Program-made: the position numbers and the translations under genes | Notes under the pieces: model-generated | Databases searched by the model: none | The model's input: the letters and a program-made list of their open reading frames with translations, nothing else | What the model was told of the DNA's origin: nothing | Assembly (NCBI RefSeq): GCF_035594765.1 | Contig: NC_085845.1 | Span: 152,350,897 to 152,414,896, forward strand | Direction of reading: 5' to 3' | Source: Anolis carolinensis | Taxonomy: Eukaryota | DNA length: 64,000 nucleotides | Shown: in pieces, positions 10,853 through 60,387 of the stretch | Layout: each line of letters begins with the position of its first letter | Position numbering within the stretch: the stretch's first letter is position 1

Positions 10853-11824
10853 TGTCACGACCCAGGCTACAGAGCACCAATAACCATACGCAGAGGCCAG
10901 ATTCTATCTAATATCTTTATTAAGGAAATATATAAGATTAATAAAAATAAATGTAAAAGTTAGTTCAGAAGCAGACCTTTCAGGAAAGGTCAAAATTAGT
11001 CCAAAAAAGCAATGTCCAATATGAAATATTATGTTCCAAAGTTGTAATCCAATAACCGAAACACTCACTTTGCCAGGCAAAGTGAGGGGAGATGACAAGG
11101 TCCTTTAGTCCATAAACTTGAGCAAGGCTAGGAAATAACTTGATACTTGAAGCAAGGCTTAAAACGTGAAACAAGGTAACAAGGAACAAGAACAAGGTCC
11201 GTGGAATAACTTGGTAAAATCCGTGATACAAGGCAAGGTATAGTCCTGGAAAACAAGCAAGGTCCGTAGGTAAACAAAGGCTGGAAACTGGAGCGAAGGC
11301 TGGAAAGCAGGGCAAGGCTTGAGCAGGAACGAGGCTTGAAACGGAGCGCGCTGTCCAGACACAACTCGCTCCGGAGGCTGACGAATTGACTCCGCGAAGT
11401 TACTACGCGGGTAAAACACCTATATAGAGTCTAACTTTCTCGCCGAAGCAGTTCTCTGGGAACCAGAAACGAAAGCTAAACTCTGGGACCAGATGTTTGA
11501 CTCCCTAAAGATTCTCACGGAAAGCAGTCTTAATTGGCTACATTCTTAGCTGCAATTCTAGCACTCCTGCGCGAAGCTGCTTCCAAACCCCTCTGTTGTT
11601 TACAAAACTCACGGCGCAAGAACACGGGAGATGTGGGCTCTGGGTTTGTTTGACATACTTCTGGGACACAACTTTCTTGCAGGTGCAAGGTTCCCAGATC
11701 TGCCTGGGAAAGATCTGGCTGAGAAGATTCCAGTTCTGACTGGGAAGGTAAAAAACCCAAGTTTTCTTCTTCATCAGGGATTACAATGTCCTGAGCAGGA
11801 CTACAAGGCCCATGGGTCATCACA
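10853..11824 (-). repeat. 3' LTR (972 bp)
   Basis: Direct repeat of 16305-17276; minus-strand AATAAA at 10916-10921. Confidence 0.97.
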
Positions 11825-14800
11825 CTATCCCCCTCCTCAAGGCCCCTCCCAAACTGGGGCCCTCTCCCCGAGGCGCGAGGTCGCGGCTTGGCGGGATAGG
11901 TCTGATGAAAGCGACGGGTTAGATCAGGAGCATGGACTGTGGAGGCGTCTTCCCAAGAGCGTTCCTCAGGGCCAAAACCCACCCAGTCAATGAGATATTG
12001 TAGGCGGCGGCGGTGAAAGCGAGAATCCAAAATGTCCTCAACCTCGAACTCCTCCTCCCCATTCATCAAAACAGGAGGGGGGGCCGGTTGGTCTGTATCA
12101 GGACGCACACCATCCGCCGGAAGGAGCAGGGAACGGTGAAACACTGGGTGGATGCGCATTGAACGCGGAAGTTGGAGTTTGAAAGTCACGGGGTTTAATT
12201 GCGCCACCACTGGATAGGGGCCAATGAAACGGGCATCTAACTTCCGGCAAGGGCGGTGGGAGGGCAGAAAGCGAGTGGACAGAAAAACCCGATCTCCTAC
12301 CTTGATTTCGGGGCCCGGCTGGCGATGTTTGTCAGCGTGGCGTTTATAGTCCTCCTTGGCTTGGTCTAGTTGCTGGAGCAAAAGTTGTTGTACCGCTGTG
12401 AGTTCCTGCAGCCAATCCTCTGCTGCGGGAACTTCTGAAGTTTCAATGACAGGGGGAAAGAAACGTGGATGGAAGCCGTAGTTTGCAAAGAACGGCGTTT
12501 CTTTTGTAGAAGCTTGAACTCCATTGTTATAGGCAAACTCTGACAGTGGTAACAGAGAAGCCCAATTGTCCTGTTGGTAGTTTACATAACAGCGAAGATA
12601 CTGCTCCAAAGTGGCATTGGTGCGCTCCGTTTGCCCATCTGTTTGGGGATGATGAGCTGAAGATAAGCGAGAGTCTATGCCCAATAGTTTTTGTAGTGCC
12701 TTCCAAAAACGAGAGGTGAATTGAGATCCACGGTCTGTGACTAAACTCTTGGGCAATCCATGTAGTCTGAAAACATGTTGAAGGAATAGATCTGCAGTCT
12801 CTTTGGCCGTGGGAAGACCTTCACAGGGAATGAAATGGGCTAACTTGGTGAAAAGGTCCACCACCACTAGAATCGTGGTGAATCCACAGGAAGGTGGTAG
12901 GTCAGTGATGAAATCCGCAGAAATTATTTCCCATGGCCGAGATGGGGTAGGAAGGGGATGCAGAAGCCCTGAGGGCTTCTCCCTTCTTATCTTGGAGCGC
13001 TGGCATACTGGGCAGGTGTTGACATATTTTTCCACATCTTTGCGGATCTTGGGCCACCAAAAATCCCTTAGGATCAGATGCATGGTTTTAAATAGTCCGA
13101 AATGCCCTGCTGGTTTGCAGTCATGACACAGACGAAGCGCTTTCTCCCTGCCCGGTCCGGGTGGGATATAAACATGATTTCTATAGCATAGCAGTCCATC
13201 TTTAAGCGAAAAGGGAAAATGCAGACCTTGACGAAGTTGGTCCTGCGCCCAGGCATCTGCTTGCTGACTAGCCCTGATTTCTTGAGCACAGATGGGTCCT
13301 GGAGCAGAGGAAGTTGAACCAATGGGAGTGGATTTGATGTTCCCCACTGTGAGCGTGGCAAAGTTCTCGGGTTGTAGTAATTGGGATTCAAAGGTCTCCT
13401 TGCGTCCTGCAGCGTATTCCGGTTTACGTGACAGGGCGTCTGCTTGCTTGGTTTGGGCTGGGGTCACATAATGAATCTGGAAGTTAAAACGTTCAAAGAA
13501 CAAAGCCCAACGTTGCTGCCTCTGATTTAGTTTGCGGGCAGTTCTTAGATGTTCTAGATTTCGATGATCAGTGTGGACTTCAATGGGAAATTTGGCCCCT
13601 TCTAGCCAATGTCTCCAAGTTTCAAAGGCTGCCTTTATGGCCAGTAGTTCCTTTTCCCAAATGGTGTAATTTCTCTCTGGTGTGGTTAGTTGACGGGAGT
13701 AAAAGGCACAGGGATGAAGGTGGTCTCCCACCGGTTGTAAGAGTACAGCCCCAATTGCCACATCAGAGGCGTCCGCTTGCACAACAAAAGGGGTTCCAGG
13801 ATCTGGGTGCTGTAGAATTGGCTGGGACGTGAATAATTTCTTTAGTTGCTGGAACCCTTTCTCTGCTTGATCAGTCCAGCGGAAGGGCTGTTTTCCACGG
13901 ATGCAGCTAGTGATTGGGTCAGACCAGCGGGCAAAATCTGGAATGAACTTGCGGTAATAGTTCGCGAACCCCAAGAAACGCTGCACCTCTTTCTTGTTAG
14001 TTGGCGCCCGCCATTCCAATACTGCTGAAACCTTGGCTGGATCCATGGAGAGCCCTAGAGGCGAGATACGGTAACCAAGGAAATCTACCTCTTGTAGATC
14101 AAAAGCGCATTTTTCCAACTTGGCATAAAGTCCATGATCCCGCAATCGTTGTAACACCATTTTGACGTGGTTCTCATGTTCTGATTGTGATCTAGAAAAC
14201 ACCAAAAAATCGTCCAGGTAGATTATCAAGAACCTATCTAGATAGTCCTGAAAAATGTCATTGACAAAATGCTGGAACGTTGCGGGAGCTCCGCATAATC
14301 CATAATTCATAACTCGGGACTCGAATAATCCGAATTTGGTCTGGAAGGCGGTCTTCCACTCGTCCCCTTCTCTGATGCGAACTAAGTTGTAAGCCCCCCG
14401 AAGATCCAGCTTGGTGTAAACCTTGGCTCCTCGAAGCCGATCCAGTAGATCCGAGATTAAGGGCAGGGGATAGCTGTTCCGCTTGGTGATATTGTTCAAT
14501 GCTCTGTAGTCCACCACCAAGCGTAGTTCCCCTGACTTCTTCTTCACAAACATCACTGGGGAGGCGGCTGGGGATTGAGAGGGTCTAATGAATCCCTTAC
14601 GAAGGTTTGTCTCTATGAATTCCCTGAGAGCTTCTTGCTCTGGTTCAGTCAGGGAGTATAGGTGCCCTCGCGGGATCGGGGCCCCCTCCACCAGGTCAAT
14701 GGCACAGTCATAAGGTCTATGTGGGGGTAATTTCTCGGCTTCTTTTTCATTGAATACATCCCAATACTCGGAGTACTTCTTGGGCAGGGTGATGATGGGC

Positions 14801-15315
14801 TCGGTGTCTGTGGCATGGCAGACCTTGGCTACAAGGCAATGGTTTTGGCAGTACTGTGAAGCAAACTGCAGTTCTCTGTTGGACCAGGAGATGCTTGGGT
14901 CGTGGAGAGTCAGCCATGGAATTCCCAAAATCACAGGGAAATGGGGAACCTCGTTAACAAAGAAGGAAATCTCTTCCATATGTTCCCTTATCCACATCCT
15001 GGTGGGTTCCGACCACTGACTTACGGGGCCCGTCTTGAGGGGGCGGCCGTCTATGGCTTGCACCACACGGGCATTCTTGAAATCATGATATTGTAATCCC
15101 AGAGAGTTGGCATACTCTCTATCAATGAAATTGTTGGTGGCTCCGGAGTCTATCATGGCGTGGATCATGACGGGTCCCCTTTTTGCTGACCATAAGGTGA
15201 CCATGAGAAGGAACAGGACCCCGGTTGGCGGCTCTTGAACGGGTTTTTTGACCGGGTTGGCGAGCCTCTCTACGCCCGGTCGTTGGCTTCCCCCGCCGGC
15301 TGTGTGCCAGCCGGC
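11530..15315 (-). CDS. pol: Retrotransposon Pol (protease, RT, RNase H, integrase, chromodomain), in the -1 frame relative to gag; frame opens at 15315, first ATG 15204
   Basis: IDSGA protease; YLDD RT; DAS..E..D RNase H; HHCC zinc finger and D,D,E integrase; GPY; chromodomain EFEVEDILDSR...YLIDWVGFGPEERSWE; no internal stops. Confidence 0.96.
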   Translation of the reverse strand, partial: AGWHTAGGGSQRPGVERLANPVKKPVQEPPTGVLFLLMVTLWSAKRGPVMIHAMIDSGATNNFIDREYANSLGLQYHDFKNARVVQAIDGRPLKTGPVSQWSEPTRMWIREHMEEISFFVNEVPHFPVILGIPWLTLHDPSISWSNRELQFASQYCQNHCLVAKVCHATDTEPIITLPKKYSEYWDVFNEKEAEKLPPHRPYDCAIDLVEGAPIPRGHLYSLTEPEQEALREFIETNLRKGFIRPSQSPAASPVMFVKKKSGELRLVVDYRALNNITKRNSYPLPLISDLLDRLRGAKVYTKLDLRGAYNLVRIREGDEWKTAFQTKFGLFESRVMNYGLCGAPATFQHFVNDIFQDYLDRFLIIYLDDFLVFSRSQSEHENHVKMVLQRLRDHGLYAKLEKCAFDLQEVDFLGYRISPLGLSMDPAKVSAVLEWRAPTNKKEVQRFLGFANYYRKFIPDFARWSDPITSCIRGKQPFRWTDQAEKGFQQLKKLFTSQPILQHPDPGTPFVVQADASDVAIGAVLLQPVGDHLHPCAFYSRQLTTPERNYTIWEKELLAIKAAFETWRHWLEGAKFPIEVHTDHRNLEHLRTARKLNQRQQRWALFFERFNFQIHYVTPAQTKQADALSRKPEYAAGRKETFESQLLQPENFATLTVGNIKSTPIGSTSSAPGPICAQEIRASQQADAWAQDQLRQGLHFPFSLKDGLLCYRNHVYIPPGPGREKALRLCHDCKPAGHFGLFKTMHLILRDFWWPKIRKDVEKYVNTCPVCQRSKIRREKPSGLLHPLPTPSRPWEIISADFITDLPPSCGFTTILVVVDLFTKLAHFIPCEGLPTAKETADLFLQHVFRLHGLPKSLVTDRGSQFTSRFWKALQKLLGIDSRLSSAHHPQTDGQTERTNATLEQYLRCYVNYQQDNWASLLPLSEFAYNNGVQASTKETPFFANYGFHPRFFPPVIETSEVPAAEDWLQELTAVQQLLLQQLDQAKEDYKRHADKHRQPGPEIKVGDRVFLSTRFLPSHRPCRKLDARFIGPYPVVAQLNPVTFKLQLPRSMRIHPVFHRSLLLPADGVRPDTDQPAPPPVLMNGEEEFEVEDILDSRFHRRRLQYLIDWVGFGPEERSWEDASTVHAPDLTRRFHQTYPAKPRPRASGRGPQFGRGLEEGDSVMTHGPCSPAQDIVIPDEEENLGFLPSQSELESSQPDLSQADLGTLHLQESCVPEVCQTNPEPTSPVFLRREFCKQQRGLEAASRRSARIAAKNVAN
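11825..11838 (-). other. Polypurine tract
   Basis: Minus strand reads GAGGAGGGGGATAG immediately before the 3' LTR. Confidence 0.85.
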
Positions 15316-16262
15316 TCAGACGCCTTCGTCTCCGTGGAGGACGCCGCCGCAAGACGGGCGGCGGCCTTCCCTTTGGCTGGGCACTCTCTGGCGAAGTGGC
15401 CCCCGTTCCCGCAGTACCAACAGAGGTTTAAGCGTTGACGACGGGCCTTCTCGGCGGCATCTAATCTGGGACGCACGTTGCCCAACTGCATCGGCACCTC
15501 CTCGCTTCCTCTGGGGTATGGGGTTGGTGGTGGGGGTCTCCACACTGGACGTGGCTGAACGCTGGCGGGAGCGGGGGGTTTTGCCCCAGCTCTACCGCTC
15601 TGGCCTCGAACCCATTGTTTCCTGTTGGCAATCATGACTTCAGCCCGTAAACATTGATCAATGAGTGCTTCGAGGGTCTGGGGAGGATCCACCTTGGAGA
15701 TTTCCTCCAGCATTTCGATGTTGAGACCCTCCCGGAATTGTCCTCTGAGGGCTACATCATTCCAGCCGGTGTTGTGGGCCAGCACTCGGAACTCGGCTAT
15801 GTACTGAGACATAGGTCTGTCTCCTTGGAAGAGGCGACGGAGTTTGTGACCGGCTGCCTCCAAATTGTCCTCGATTCCCCAAGTCTCTTTAAGGTGGTCC
15901 AAGAAGCGTTGCGCGGATCTTAGGTGTGGAGAGGCTTGGTCGAACAGTGCCGTCGCCCAGTTGGCCGCTGGCCCGTCTAGAAGACTGTAAACCCATGCCA
16001 CCTTGATGTCTTCTTGGGGAAATTCGGCAGCACGGGCCTCTAGATAAGCTTGGCATTGGCGACGGAAAACATGAACCTTAGAAGCTTCTCCAGTAAACTT
16101 GGTTGGCAACGCCATGGCCGGTAGACGGATTCCGCGTTCCTTCAAACCTTTTATTTCTCCATCCTGGGCATTGAGCTTATCACGGATTCGATCCACCTCA
16201 TCCTTGTCGATGGTGTAGGTAATCGGCTGGCCGCTCGGCCCAGGTACGGTTCCGGTAGACAT
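15270..16262 (-). CDS. gag: Retrotransposon Gag (330 aa)
   Basis: Capsid-like region (LFQGDRPMSQYIAEFR), EVPMQLG motif, CCHC knuckle CWYCGNGGHFAREC. Confidence 0.95.
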   Translation of the reverse strand: MSTGTVPGPSGQPITYTIDKDEVDRIRDKLNAQDGEIKGLKERGIRLPAMALPTKFTGEASKVHVFRRQCQAYLEARAAEFPQEDIKVAWVYSLLDGPAANWATALFDQASPHLRSAQRFLDHLKETWGIEDNLEAAGHKLRRLFQGDRPMSQYIAEFRVLAHNTGWNDVALRGQFREGLNIEMLEEISKVDPPQTLEALIDQCLRAEVMIANRKQWVRGQSGRAGAKPPAPASVQPRPVWRPPPPTPYPRGSEEVPMQLGNVRPRLDAAEKARRQRLNLCWYCGNGGHFARECPAKGKAAARLAAASSTETKASEPAGTQPAGEANDRA

Positions 16263-16292: not shown

Positions 16293-16302
16293 GCGGAGTC
16301 AA
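16293..16302 (-). other. Self-priming primer-binding site (TTGACTCCGC)
   Basis: 2 nt inside the 5' LTR edge; no TGG; perfectly complementary to 16838-16847, about 30 nt downstream of the TATA box. Confidence 0.8.
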
Positions 16303-16304
16303 AC

Positions 16305-17276
16305 TGTCACGACCCAGGCTACAGAGCACCAATAACCATACGCAGAGGCCAGATTCTATCTAATATCTTTATTAAGGAAATATATAAGATTAATAAAAAT
16401 AAATGTAAAAGTTAGTTCAGAAGCAGACCTTTCAGGAAAGGTCAAAATTAGTCCAAAAAAGCAATGTCCAATATGAAATATTATGTTCCAAAGTTGTAAT
16501 CCAATAACCGAAACACTCACTTTGCCAGGCAAAGTGAGGGGAGATGACAAGGTCCTTTAGTCCATAAACTTGAGCAAGGCTAGGAAATAACTTGATACTT
16601 GAAGCAAGGCTTAAAACGTGAAACAAGGTAACAAGGAACAAGAACAAGGTCCGTGGAATAACTTGGTAAAATCCGTGATACAAGGCAAGGTATAGTCCTG
16701 GAAAACAAGCAAGGTCCGTAGGTAAACAAAGGCTGGAAACTGGAGCGAAGGCTGGAAAGCAGGGCAAGGCTTGAGCAGGAACGAGGCTTGAAACGGAGCG
16801 CGCTGTCCAGACACAACTCGCTCCGGAGGCTGACGAATTGACTCCGCGAAGTTACTACGCGGGTAAAACACCTATATAGAGTCTAACTTTCTCGCCGAAG
16901 CAGTTCTCTGGGAACCAGAAACGAAAGCTAAACTCTGGGACCAGATGTTTGACTCCCTAAAGATTCTCACGGAAAGCAGTCTTAATTGGCTACATTCTTA
17001 GCTGCAATTCTAGCACTCCTGCGCGAAGCTGCTTCCAAACCCCTCTGTTGTTTACAAAACTCACGGCGCAAGAACACGGGAGATGTGGGCTCTGGGTTTG
17101 TTTGACATACTTCTGGGACACAACTTTCTTGCAGGTGCAAGGTTCCCAGATCTGCCTGGGAAAGATCTGGCTGAGAAGATTCCAGTTCTGACTGGGAAGG
17201 TAAAAAACCCAAGTTTTCTTCTTCATCAGGGATTACAATGTCCTGAGCAGGACTACAAGGCCCATGGGTCATCACA
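16305..17276 (-). repeat. 5' LTR (972 bp)
   Basis: Direct repeat of 10853-11824 at offset 5452; TATATA at 16873-16878; ORF-track peptides from both LTRs are identical. Confidence 0.97.
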
Positions 17277-41779: not shown

Positions 41780-42766
41780 GTCCATACATATGTGAATACA
41801 ACTGGTGTGCAAGAGGAAAGGAAAAACAGACCAAATGTGCGCACACCTCTTGAACGAAGGGTTTCCAGTGCAGAAGTGAACAACACGAGAGAGGAGGAAA
41901 CATGTCCTGATGAAAGAGAGGCTCAGGTTGTATTGGAGCCTGAAGGAGTCAAATTTGTTTTGGGCCCAACACCTGTCCAGAGACAATTGATGGAAAAAGA
42001 AAAACTGGAATCAACTGGGAACAGTAATCAAGCTTGTGGAAACAGTGCTGAAACTAGTGGTAACAGTACTCAAGCTTGTGGGAATAGTAACAATGAGTGG
42101 GACACTGGGTATGACAGTGATGAACGTAAAGATGTTCCCTCTGGTAACAAACTGGCATATGAAAATGTAAATAGATTGTCCATCCCTGGCAACTCAGGGA
42201 TCAGGAGAGGCCGTCTGTTATCATCCAGTACCTCTGATACTCAAAATGTCAACAATTCAGCTCAGAGGAGAACTGCACTGTTAAATTATGAAAATCTTCC
42301 ATCTTTGCCTCCAGTTTGGGAAGCCCGCAAGCTCAGTAAAGAGGATGACACTTTAGGACCAAAGACACCTTCTCTTAACGGCTACCACAATAATTTAGAT
42401 CCCATGCATAATTATGTCAATACAGAGAACGTAACAGTGCCATCAAGTGCTCACAAAGTAGAATATGCAAGACGTCGGGACTGCACCCCAACAGTCTTTA
42501 ACTTTGATATTAGGCGGCCAAGTTCAGAACACAGGCAGCTCAACTATATACAGGTTGATTTGGAAGCTGGTAGTGACTCTGACAACCCTCAGACTCCCAA
42601 AACGCCTACCACTCCACTTCCACAGACTCCAACCAGGCGCACAGAGCTGTATGCTGTGATAGACATTGAAAGAACAGCTGCTATGTCAAGCTTGCAGAAA
42701 GCATTGCCTCGAGACGACGGTACTTCTAGAAAAACTAGACATAACAGTACTGACCTGCCTATGTGA
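41780..42766 (+). CDS. FRS2: FRS2 final coding exon (tyrosine docking tail)
   Basis: VHTYVNT...YENV...YENL...YVNT (GRB2-type YxN sites), NYIQV and LYAVI (SHP2-type sites), C-terminus TRHNSTDLPM*; spliced CDS 1563 nt = 520 aa. Confidence 0.98.
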   Translation, partial: VHTYVNTTGVQEERKNRPNVRTPLERRVSSAEVNNTREEETCPDEREAQVVLEPEGVKFVLGPTPVQRQLMEKEKLESTGNSNQACGNSAETSGNSTQACGNSNNEWDTGYDSDERKDVPSGNKLAYENVNRLSIPGNSGIRRGRLLSSSTSDTQNVNNSAQRRTALLNYENLPSLPPVWEARKLSKEDDTLGPKTPSLNGYHNNLDPMHNYVNTENVTVPSSAHKVEYARRRDCTPTVFNFDIRRPSSEHRQLNYIQVDLEAGSDSDNPQTPKTPTTPLPQTPTRRTELYAVIDIERTAAMSSLQKALPRDDGTSRKTRHNSTDLPM

Positions 42767-58367: not shown

Positions 58368-58619
58368 TAATTAGTTTCATGCACCACATTGGGTCCCATC
58401 TCCAGAATTAATGACACAACTTCAATTGGAAAAAGTGGGTTCCCTTGGAACTAGAAATACCAGTATCCTACAGTGGTGCAAAAGTATTTAAACATATAAA
58501 AATTCAATTCATACATACAAATACAAATGAGGTCAGCAAAACATAAGATTGTAACATTCACATTGAAAAGAAAAAAAACATGTTCTTTTCTCAAAAAAAT
58601 GAGAAAATGAGAATTTTTT

Positions 58620-60387
58620 GGTAGAAAAAGGAAGAAAAAGGAGGCGATAGGGCCACTGCAAGGAGTAGATGGGGTGATGGTGACAGGGGATAGGGAAAAG
58701 GCAGAACTGCTTAATGCCTTCTTTGCCTCGGTCTTCTCACAAAAAGAAAGCCATCTTCAACCTCAGCAACATGGAATGGACGAAGGATTGGGGGAAATCC
58801 AACCCCAAATAGGGAAACAAGTTGTCCAGGAACACCTGGCCACTCTAAACGAATTCAAGTCCCCAGGGCCAGATCAGCTACATCCAAGAGTATTGAAGGA
58901 ACTAGCGGAAGTTATTTCAGAACCACTGGCAATCATCTTCGAGAGTTCTTGGAGAACAGGAGAAGTCCCAGCAGATTGGAGGAGGGCGAATGTGGTCCCT
59001 ATCTTCAAGAAGGGAAAAAAGAACGACCCAAACAATTACCGTCCGGTCAGCCTCACATCAATACCAGGCAAGATTCTGGAAAAGATCATTAAGGAAGTGG
59101 TCTGCAAACACTTAGAAACAAATGCGGTCATTGCTAATAGTCAACACGGATTTACCAAAAACAAGTCATGCCAGACTAATCTGATCTCTTTTTTCGATAG
59201 AGTTACGAGTTGGGTCGATACAGGGAATGCCGTGGATGTAGCATATCTAGATTTCAGTAAGGCCTTCGACAAAGTCCCCCACGACCTTCTGGCAAACAAA
59301 CTAGTAAAATGTGGGCTAGACAAAACTACGGTTAGGTGGATCTGTAATTGGCTAAGCGAACGAACCCAAAGGGTGCTCACCAATGCGTCGTCTTCATCAT
59401 GGAAAGAAGTGACAAGTGGAGTGCCGCAGGGCTCCGTCCTGGGCCCGGTTCTGTTCAACATCTTTATTAACGACTTAGACGAAGGGTTAGAAGGCACGAT
59501 CATCAAGTTTGCAGATGACACCAAACTCGGAGGGATAGCTAACACTCCAGAAGACAGGAGCAGAATTCAAAACGATCTTGACAGACTAGAGAGATGGGCT
59601 GAAACTAACAAAATGAAGTTCAACAGGGACAAATGCAAGATACTTCACTTCGGCAGAAAAAATGGAAATCAAAGATACAGAATGGGGGACTTGACAGCAG
59701 TGTGTGCGAAAAAGATCTTGGAGTCCTCGTGGACAACAAGTTAAACATGAGCCTACAATGTGATGCGGCAGCTAAAAAAGCCAATGGGATTTTGGCCTGC
59801 ATCAATAGGGGAATAACGTCTAGATCCAGGGAAGTCATGCTCCCCCTCTATTCTGCCTTGGTCAGACCACACCTGGAATACTGTGTCCAGTTTTGGGCAC
59901 CACAGATGAAGGGAGATGCTGACAAGCTGGAAAGCGTCCAGAGGAGGGCAACTAAAATGATTAAGGGTCTGGAGAACAAGCCCTATGAGGAGAGGCTTAA
60001 AGAGCTGGGCATGTTTAGCCTGCAGAAGAGAAGGCTGAGAGGAGACATGATAGCCATGTACAAATATGTGAGGGGAAGTCATAGGGAGGAGGGAGCAAGC
60101 TTATTTTCTGCTGCCCTGCAGACTAGGACACGGAACAATGGCTTCAAACTACAGGAAAGGAGATTCCACCTGAACATCAGGAAGAACTTCCTCACTGTGA
60201 GGGCTGTTCGGCAGTGGAACTCTCTCCCCCGGGCCGTGGTGGAGGCTCCTTCTTTGGAGGCTTTTAAGCAGAGGCTGGATGGCCATCTGTCGGGGGTGCT
60301 TTGAATGCGATTTCCTGCTTCTTAGCGGGGGGTTGGACTAGATGGCCCTTGAGGTCTCTTCCAACTCTACTATTCTATGATTCTATG
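58620..60387 (+). mobile_element. 5'-truncated young CR1 LINE (RT region, one frameshift near 59690)
   Basis: [37 protein letters not shown]...WNSLP motifs; ATTCTATG octamer tail. Confidence 0.96.

Follow-up and report, generated by a model that had tools for sequence, protein, structure and literature searches.

A young Ty3/gypsy chromovirus in the genome of the lizard Anolis carolinensis carries an integrase tail that is encoded inside its long terminal repeat (LTR). The tail is under purifying selection as a protein, and its HMGN-like motif is kept in five subfamilies of this genome and in Podarcis. On the basis of a modelled complex, the RRSxRI motif of the tail probably anchors the integration complex on the acidic patch of H2A/H2B, beside the chromodomain.

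Architecture of the element

The window, the whole 64,000-nucleotide stretch that was analysed, contains a complete chromovirus on the minus strand at 17276-10853, with two LTRs, gag and pol. A CACCA target duplication flanks the element, its LTRs are of the TG..CA type, and their identity over 972 bp marks it as young. The pol gene is a single frame without stops from 15315 to 11530. The features of the element are as follows:

16305..17276, minus strand: 5' LTR, 972 bp, identical to the 3' LTR
16293..16302, minus strand: primer site TTGACTCCGC, 10-nt complement of 11395-11386 in the LTR, putatively of the self-priming type
15270..16262, minus strand: gag (Retrotrans_gag, zf-CCHC), from domain matches
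11530..15315, minus strand: pol frame with protease, RT, RNase H, integrase, SH3, chromodomain and tail; 1261 codons, stop to stop
11902..12048, minus strand: chromodomain PF00385 (E 3e-9), pol residues 1090-1138
11825..11889, minus strand: basic linker and polypurine tract (PPT, 11838-11828), 22 codons, read through in frame
10853..11824, minus strand: 3' LTR, 972 bp, identical to the 5' LTR
11530..11823, minus strand: integrase tail in U3, 97 codons plus stop, omega ~0.3
11713..11790, minus strand: acidic segment DIVIPDEEENLGFLPSQSELESSQPD, predicted unstructured, in-frame indels tolerated
11620..11631, minus strand: SP[PV]F, whose S, P and F do not vary among the intact copies aligned (16 of 16)
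11536..11616, minus strand: predicted basic helix, pLDDT 77-84
11545..11571, minus strand: HMGN-like motif RRSARIAAK, predicted acidic-patch anchor
11421..11426, minus strand: TATA box, with a putative transcription start near 11395
10916..10921, minus strand: AATAAA polyadenylation signal

The chromodomain follows the integrase SH3 domain and shows, by inspection, F, W and F at the positions that we take, by alignment to HP1, to be those of the aromatic cage. The cage of group I chromodomains is given as Y, W, Y (PMC3605345). The 10-nt match of the leader primer site begins at 11395, 31 nt past the TATA box, and this spacing recurs in subfamilies A-C of the element, described below. A second 10-nt complement to the leader is present at 11504-11495, upstream of the TATA box. 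With transcription thus probably starting near 11395, the tail lies in U3. The self-priming layout is defined as a trait of the Tf1/Sushi group (PMC6317226), and by the features tested, namely PR-RT-RH-IN order, a group I chromodomain and a self-priming site, the element is a Tf1/Sushi-type chromovirus.

A genome search returned 2,542 candidate copies, and the best 40 of the 2,542, scored at ~100% identity, are scattered along the large contigs. Among named proteins, the closest are Anolis carolinensis entries with 91-92% identity, and the tails of other A. carolinensis entries have 100% matches in this genome. Four public gene models (P0284, P0285, P0312 and P0339) join pieces of such elements to host gene names (PCBD2, KCNQ5 and a G-protein receptor entry); these fusions are either annotation artefacts or exonisation.

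Elsewhere in the window, a 328-codon frame at 41780-42766 on the plus strand has no Pfam match. Presumably it corresponds to the last coding exon of FRS2, which it resembles, and the retrotransposon may lie antisense within or near an FRS2-like gene. Two overlapping frames at 58611-60304 (plus strand) are likely a LINE fragment; the first of them matches a reverse transcriptase domain (E 2e-35). Four presumed-RNA contig sets over the region contain no splice joints, and in one of them a loose end of 8 T lies at 10902, close to the AATAAA; these observations were given no weight as evidence on expression. A sigma-70 promoter scan was set aside, the host being a eukaryote.

A reading frame that enters the LTR

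Beyond the chromodomain, the frame takes in the 22 codons of linker and PPT, spans the LTR edge with one codon and continues for 97 whole codons inside the LTR (11823-11533), acidic first and basic last, to a TAA. An earlier sequence-only reading had pol continuing beyond both chromodomain and PPT and taking in 97 further codons within the 3' LTR, and the open frame and the located LTR edges bear this out; the acidic segment and the basic end with RRSARIAAK that it described were found at 11790-11713 and 11571-11545, respectively. Its further statement that the tail is overprinted on LTR promoter DNA stands as far as the tail falls in U3, given the putative start site, but does not extend to the core promoter, which lies outside the overlap, the tail ending ~100 bases upstream of the TATA box.

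When the 291 bases of the tail were shuffled, 1,225 of 200,000 shuffles (0.6%) stayed open for 97 codons, and RRS.R[IL], a motif picked post hoc, occurred in 173. Selection, presented below, is stronger evidence for the tail than these odds.

The AlphaFold2 model of the tail spans only residues after the acidic segment; for the last 60 residues alone, it has an unstructured first half and a single helix across the last 27. A Pfam scan of the 97-aa tail at an E cut-off of 0.1 returned no family. A PDB sequence search with the tail gave one chance match, PopZ (E 1.1), with HMGN chains absent among the matches, and an ESM Atlas search gave three plant clusters at 0.80, which are uninformative.

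Protein-level selection on the tail

Near-identical copies are uninformative on selection, and diverged subfamilies were therefore sought. Searches with diverged tails yielded 120 loci of subfamilies A-D, from which 12 incomplete ones were dropped and 108 analysed. Their tails measure 119, 114, 107 and 108-109 aa, respectively, and stop at roughly the same place. As the sequence-only reading would predict, 101 of the 108 copies are open for at least 100 aa, and 96 hold an in-frame RRS.R[ILV]; both counts are biased, because picking copies by tail likeness favours intact ones.

Subfamily E is older and was found by a search whose matches rest on chromodomain and linker. Of the 20 copies picked in this way, 18 have the motif, but among the 17 whose chromodomain is readable the frame stays open as far as the motif in only 7. 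Most of the breaks come from a changed G-run length in the PPT and are dispersed over the tree; the run departs from its commonest length in 9 of 18 measured copies. Three shifted copies cluster, weakly (88/83), and may represent a lineage that copied without the tail.

Pairwise dN/dS between single real copies of four subfamilies was 0.07 for the integrase core, 0.06 for the chromodomain, 1.06 for linker plus PPT and 0.26 for the LTR tail. Linker and PPT, with a ratio near 1, nevertheless show no shared indel in subfamilies A-D. A codon model covered 80 tail codons of 16 copies that had been selected for motif intactness, with one more left out for an upstream stop, and gave omega ~0.3, with lnL -1823.8 compared with -1879.4 when omega is set to 1 (p 6e-26). 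Removing the motif codons left omega at 0.33 (p 3e-16 against 1). The value below 1 that the sequence-only reading had called for in the LTR-overlapping frame was thus obtained.

A conserved DNA element is ruled out as the cause by three features. Each invariant motif residue has more than one codon across copies, with arginine alternating between CGN and AGR. DNA identity is lowest around the motif, at 0.52-0.63 for 11600-11541 compared with 0.8-0.88 near the LTR end. Of the indels shared by at least three copies, 3 of 4 in the tail leave the frame intact, compared with 9 of 49 behind the stop (Fisher p 0.03); the fourth shared tail indel sits just behind the motif.

The DNA of the LTR tail evolves ~2.7 times faster than that of the integrase, with tree lengths of 5.9 and 2.2. 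Selection on a protein inside such a fast-diverging LTR means that the far part of U3 merits annotation as coding in these elements. For the same copy pairs, tail dS (0.4-1.9) is well above that of the integrase core (0.34-0.51), an excess due to either faster U3 turnover or LTR exchange.

Relatives in other species

In a tree of 35 rows and 205 integrase columns, with no named Sushi reference, the squamate relatives and one further row form one clade (95/96), within which the branching is an open fork. Proteins of Podarcis muralis share 61% identity over SH3 and chromodomain; their tails of 134 and 128 aa are acidic, have an unalignable middle and end in PRRSARLKA[RK]. The Podarcis gene models P0312, P0332 and P0340 start with the tail and continue into gag, which suggests that this tail also lies within the LTR. 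For relatives outside the anole genome in general, we infer the LTR overlap from the D-S-V/D-G-V register of the proteins and from these gene models.

Five viper proteins (tails of 122-126 aa), one from Rhineura and one further protein of the clade have an acidic-then-basic tail with no RRSxR[IL]; the viper tails finish in KKKR or RRRH, NLS-like in appearance. By sequence comparison, the long acidic-then-basic architecture is widespread in squamates. Given its absence from the viper and Rhineura relatives, the motif itself is not clade-wide: its exact form occurs in 2 of the 4 named squamate lineages with a readable tail. Proteins of Python, Pantherophis, Pituophis and Heteronotia, whose tails are cut or spliced-looking in the gene models, were counted neither way. 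Across 354 chromodomain-bearing proteins, RRS.R[LIVM] follows the domain in 22, all of them Anolis or Podarcis entries. The RRSAR conservation that had been put forward for testing in squamates holds, in the form RRSxR, for the five anole subfamilies and Podarcis, but fails for the viper and Rhineura tails.

The motif was absent in the fish, amphibian and fungal relatives examined; chromoviruses therefore work without it. The fish relatives have a different tail of 45-48 aa, which likely extends ~22 codons into the LTR in those bearing RGRP. Every one of the 26 RGRP-bearing tails that measure 44-50 aa (P0020, P0031, P0050, P0122 and others, from bony fishes where named) ends in SP[ED][YF]; across RGRP tails of any length the figure is 26 of 64. 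This ending resembles the phospho-S-x-x-F/Y ligands of BRCT domains. Podarcis has SPDL where anole tails carry SP[PV]F, just before the basic helix, and the anole SP[PV]F may correspond to the terminal SP[ED][YF] of fishes.

Predicted docking on the acidic patch

HMGN proteins reach the acidic patch through RRSARLSA (PMC12487698). In the cryo-EM structures of tardigrade Dsup, the last arginine of RRSSR lies at H2A E61/D90/E92, the serine at E61 or E64, the second arginine at E64 and the first at H2B Q47, H2A E56 and H2B E113 (PMC12487698). Nucleosome binding by yeast Dot5, through RRSARIAT, requires R6, R7 and R10 as well as the acidic patch (PMC13347269). The pattern R-R-S-x-R-[LI] with its three arginines, as defined from Dsup and Dot5, is present in the tail motif.

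The last 36 residues of the tail were modelled with H2A and H2B from the same genome. The predicted complex scored 0.74, and the best of three controls, which were unrelated proteins rather than basic or motif-mutant peptides, scored 0.02. Contacts agreed by at least 94% between runs, and the partner pLDDT was at least 65. The score mark was calibrated on pairs other than peptides: among microbial pairs, 51 of 78 solved ones reach it and 2 of 108 mismatched ones, and among eukaryotic pairs, 71 of 105 and 2 of 126, respectively.

The predicted interface comprises H2A A60, E61, E64, L65 and D90 and H2B V44, Q47-D51, E105, L106 and H109. Its closest pairs are the third arginine with H2A E61, the serine with E61/E64, the second arginine with E64 and the first arginine with H2B Q47, and the third arginine is placed at H2A E61/D90. 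As modelled, the complex follows the Dsup register, with the contacts described in PMC12487698, although it omits H2A E56 and E92 and H2B E113, which are contacts in solved structures. The earlier expectation that the arginines land on the H2A/H2B acidic patch is thus matched by the model; its pass speaks for resemblance to solved complexes rather than for binding as such, and it may stem from the predictor having learned the Dsup and HMGN structures.

Proposed mechanism and alternative explanations

The integrase gene continues into the LTR for 97 codons under selection, and in the mechanism that we propose the tail would remain attached to the mature integrase. The acidic stretch may act as a flexible spacer through which the motif gains access to the face of the nucleosome disc, and the integration complex would then hold the nucleosome by two handles, the chromodomain and the arginine anchor. 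The group I chromodomain would read methylated H3 and supply a preference for the mark, while the arginine anchor would supply general nucleosome affinity and retention on chromatin. Phosphorylation of the motif serine might switch the anchor off, as proposed for HMGN proteins (PMC12487698). Selection, motif conservation and the peptide-H2A/H2B model together lend support to the idea, put forward from the sequence alone, of an integrase with two chromatin tethers, a chromodomain and an acidic-patch anchor. A point against it is that position 4 of the motif varies among A, L and V.

The strongest competing explanation, although an unlikely one, is that the basic end serves as a nuclear localisation signal (NLS) or a general DNA-binding patch, its HMGN likeness being incidental. 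In its favour, the trait kept across the clade is the acidic-then-basic charge pattern and not the motif, viper tails finish in KKKR or RRRH, and C-terminal NLSs have been noted on retrotransposon integrases (PMC3605345). However, the near-identical motif of Dot5 is an acidic-patch binder (PMC13347269). Moreover, five anole subfamilies and Podarcis share the spacing R-R-S-x-R and the uncharged residues (S, I/L and A), whereas the basic residues nearby differ, and the anole tail end lacks a lysine-rich cluster.

It is improbable that the tail is cut off by the protease of the element, or made separately, to act alone on host chromatin. A separate product would have a model in the LTR-overlapping accessory genes nef and sag, and it would fit the linker dN/dS near 1, the in-frame ATG at LTR bases 5-7 in anole copies and the methionine at the same place in Podarcis and Rhineura. 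That ATG, however, belongs to the terminal TGTGATG, vipers have valine at the position, and the frame is continuous with the integrase in the anole, Podarcis, Rhineura and viper proteins; the four presumed-RNA contig sets without a splice joint point weakly in the same direction.

Just as small a chance attaches to a reading in which the main reason for conserving RRS, along with SP[PV]F, is phosphorylation by a kinase of PKA or Aurora type or the docking of some other host protein. RRS and SPxF are both invariant in the 16 intact copies aligned, and the uniform SP[ED][YF] ending of the 44-50-aa RGRP-bearing fish tails (26 of 26) would agree with such a role. A kinase site, though, needs neither the third arginine nor I-A-A, and a phospho-switch also fits an acidic-patch anchor (PMC12487698).

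Passive read-through, in which the open frame is an accident or promoter DNA, itself conserved, mimics a conserved peptide, could draw on the youth and near-identity of the family copies and on the 0.6% of shuffles that stay open, but it is almost certainly wrong, since omega of 0.3 rejects neutrality, the peptide is invariant where DNA identity is lowest, only in the tail do shared indels preserve the frame, and synonymous codon swaps within the motif refute it.

Beyond the proposed acidic-patch anchor of the anole element, we tentatively raise a broader reading in which the start of U3 in vertebrate chromoviruses is a fast-changing docking cassette on the integrase, carrying an HMGN mimic in the anole and wall lizard, another basic helix in vipers, and an AT-hook-like linker with a terminal SP[ED][YF] in bony fishes. 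Were this true, the anole and wall-lizard integrase would use an arginine anchor of its own to dock on the acidic patch, reading nucleosomes bivalently with the chromodomain, and each new LTR would spread the coding DNA of the cassette.

Significance

The choice and holding of target chromatin by chromoviruses are usually credited to the chromodomain alone. A second, LTR-encoded tether would offer a nine-residue handle on targeting, in a vertebrate element with many young copies. Extension of pol into the LTR is already known from plant chromoviruses; what is new, as far as we found, is the HMGN-like anchor on an integrase. Our literature search, mostly of open-access main texts, found no HMGN-like or acidic-patch motif on a retrotransposon integrase; the supplementary motif lists of PMC13347269 or PMC12487698 may be relevant to this novelty. 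Non-HMGN proteins with an HMGN-like motif have been called an "untapped realm" (PMC12487698). If the motif works, a mobile element would join Dsup and Dot5 among the non-HMGN proteins in which such a motif functions.

Comparison with known systems

In group A of the plant CRM elements, pol also runs into the 3' LTR, and the LTR encodes a CR targeting motif that replaces the chromodomain (PMC3059260, PMC6317226); the account of the CR motif in PMC3059260 leaves its partner unidentified. The lizard element shares the entry of its ORF into the 3' LTR but keeps its chromodomain and adds a second motif, where CRM swaps one for the other. It is neither a CRM element nor an HMGN family member. The beet elements Bingo1-4 and Bingo7 likewise combine a chromodomain with an ORF that enters the flanking LTR (PMC3605345). 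Their chromodomain is of group II, however, and the passages of PMC3605345 on the extension give no function, motif or selection for it. The description of Sushi LTRs in PMC3601003 makes no mention of an ORF in its corresponding passages.

Gripping nucleosomes through an arginine anchor is also a property of other mobile genomes, as in KSHV LANA, CMV IE1 and foamy virus Gag (PMC9040877), and MLV p12 is a nucleosome tether as well (PMC6021111). The arginine anchor of foamy virus Gag shapes integration sites, whereas the foamy intasome itself uses none (PMC9040877). In contrast to the lizard motif, these viral tethers differ in sequence and belong to Gag or latency proteins (PMC9040877).

The closest likeness is to HMGN (RRSARLSA), Dsup (RRSSRLTS) and Dot5 (RRSARIAT), with 6, 4 and 7 of 8 residues identical to the lizard motif, respectively (PMC12487698, PMC13347269), and with three arginines and a serine spaced alike in all. 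The remainder of the lizard tail has no HMGN family match. HMGN, Dsup and Dot5 are host proteins, whereas the lizard motif resides on the integrase of a mobile element and is encoded in LTR DNA. From the modelled complex, the tail is predicted to work like the HMGN-like motifs of Dsup and Dot5.
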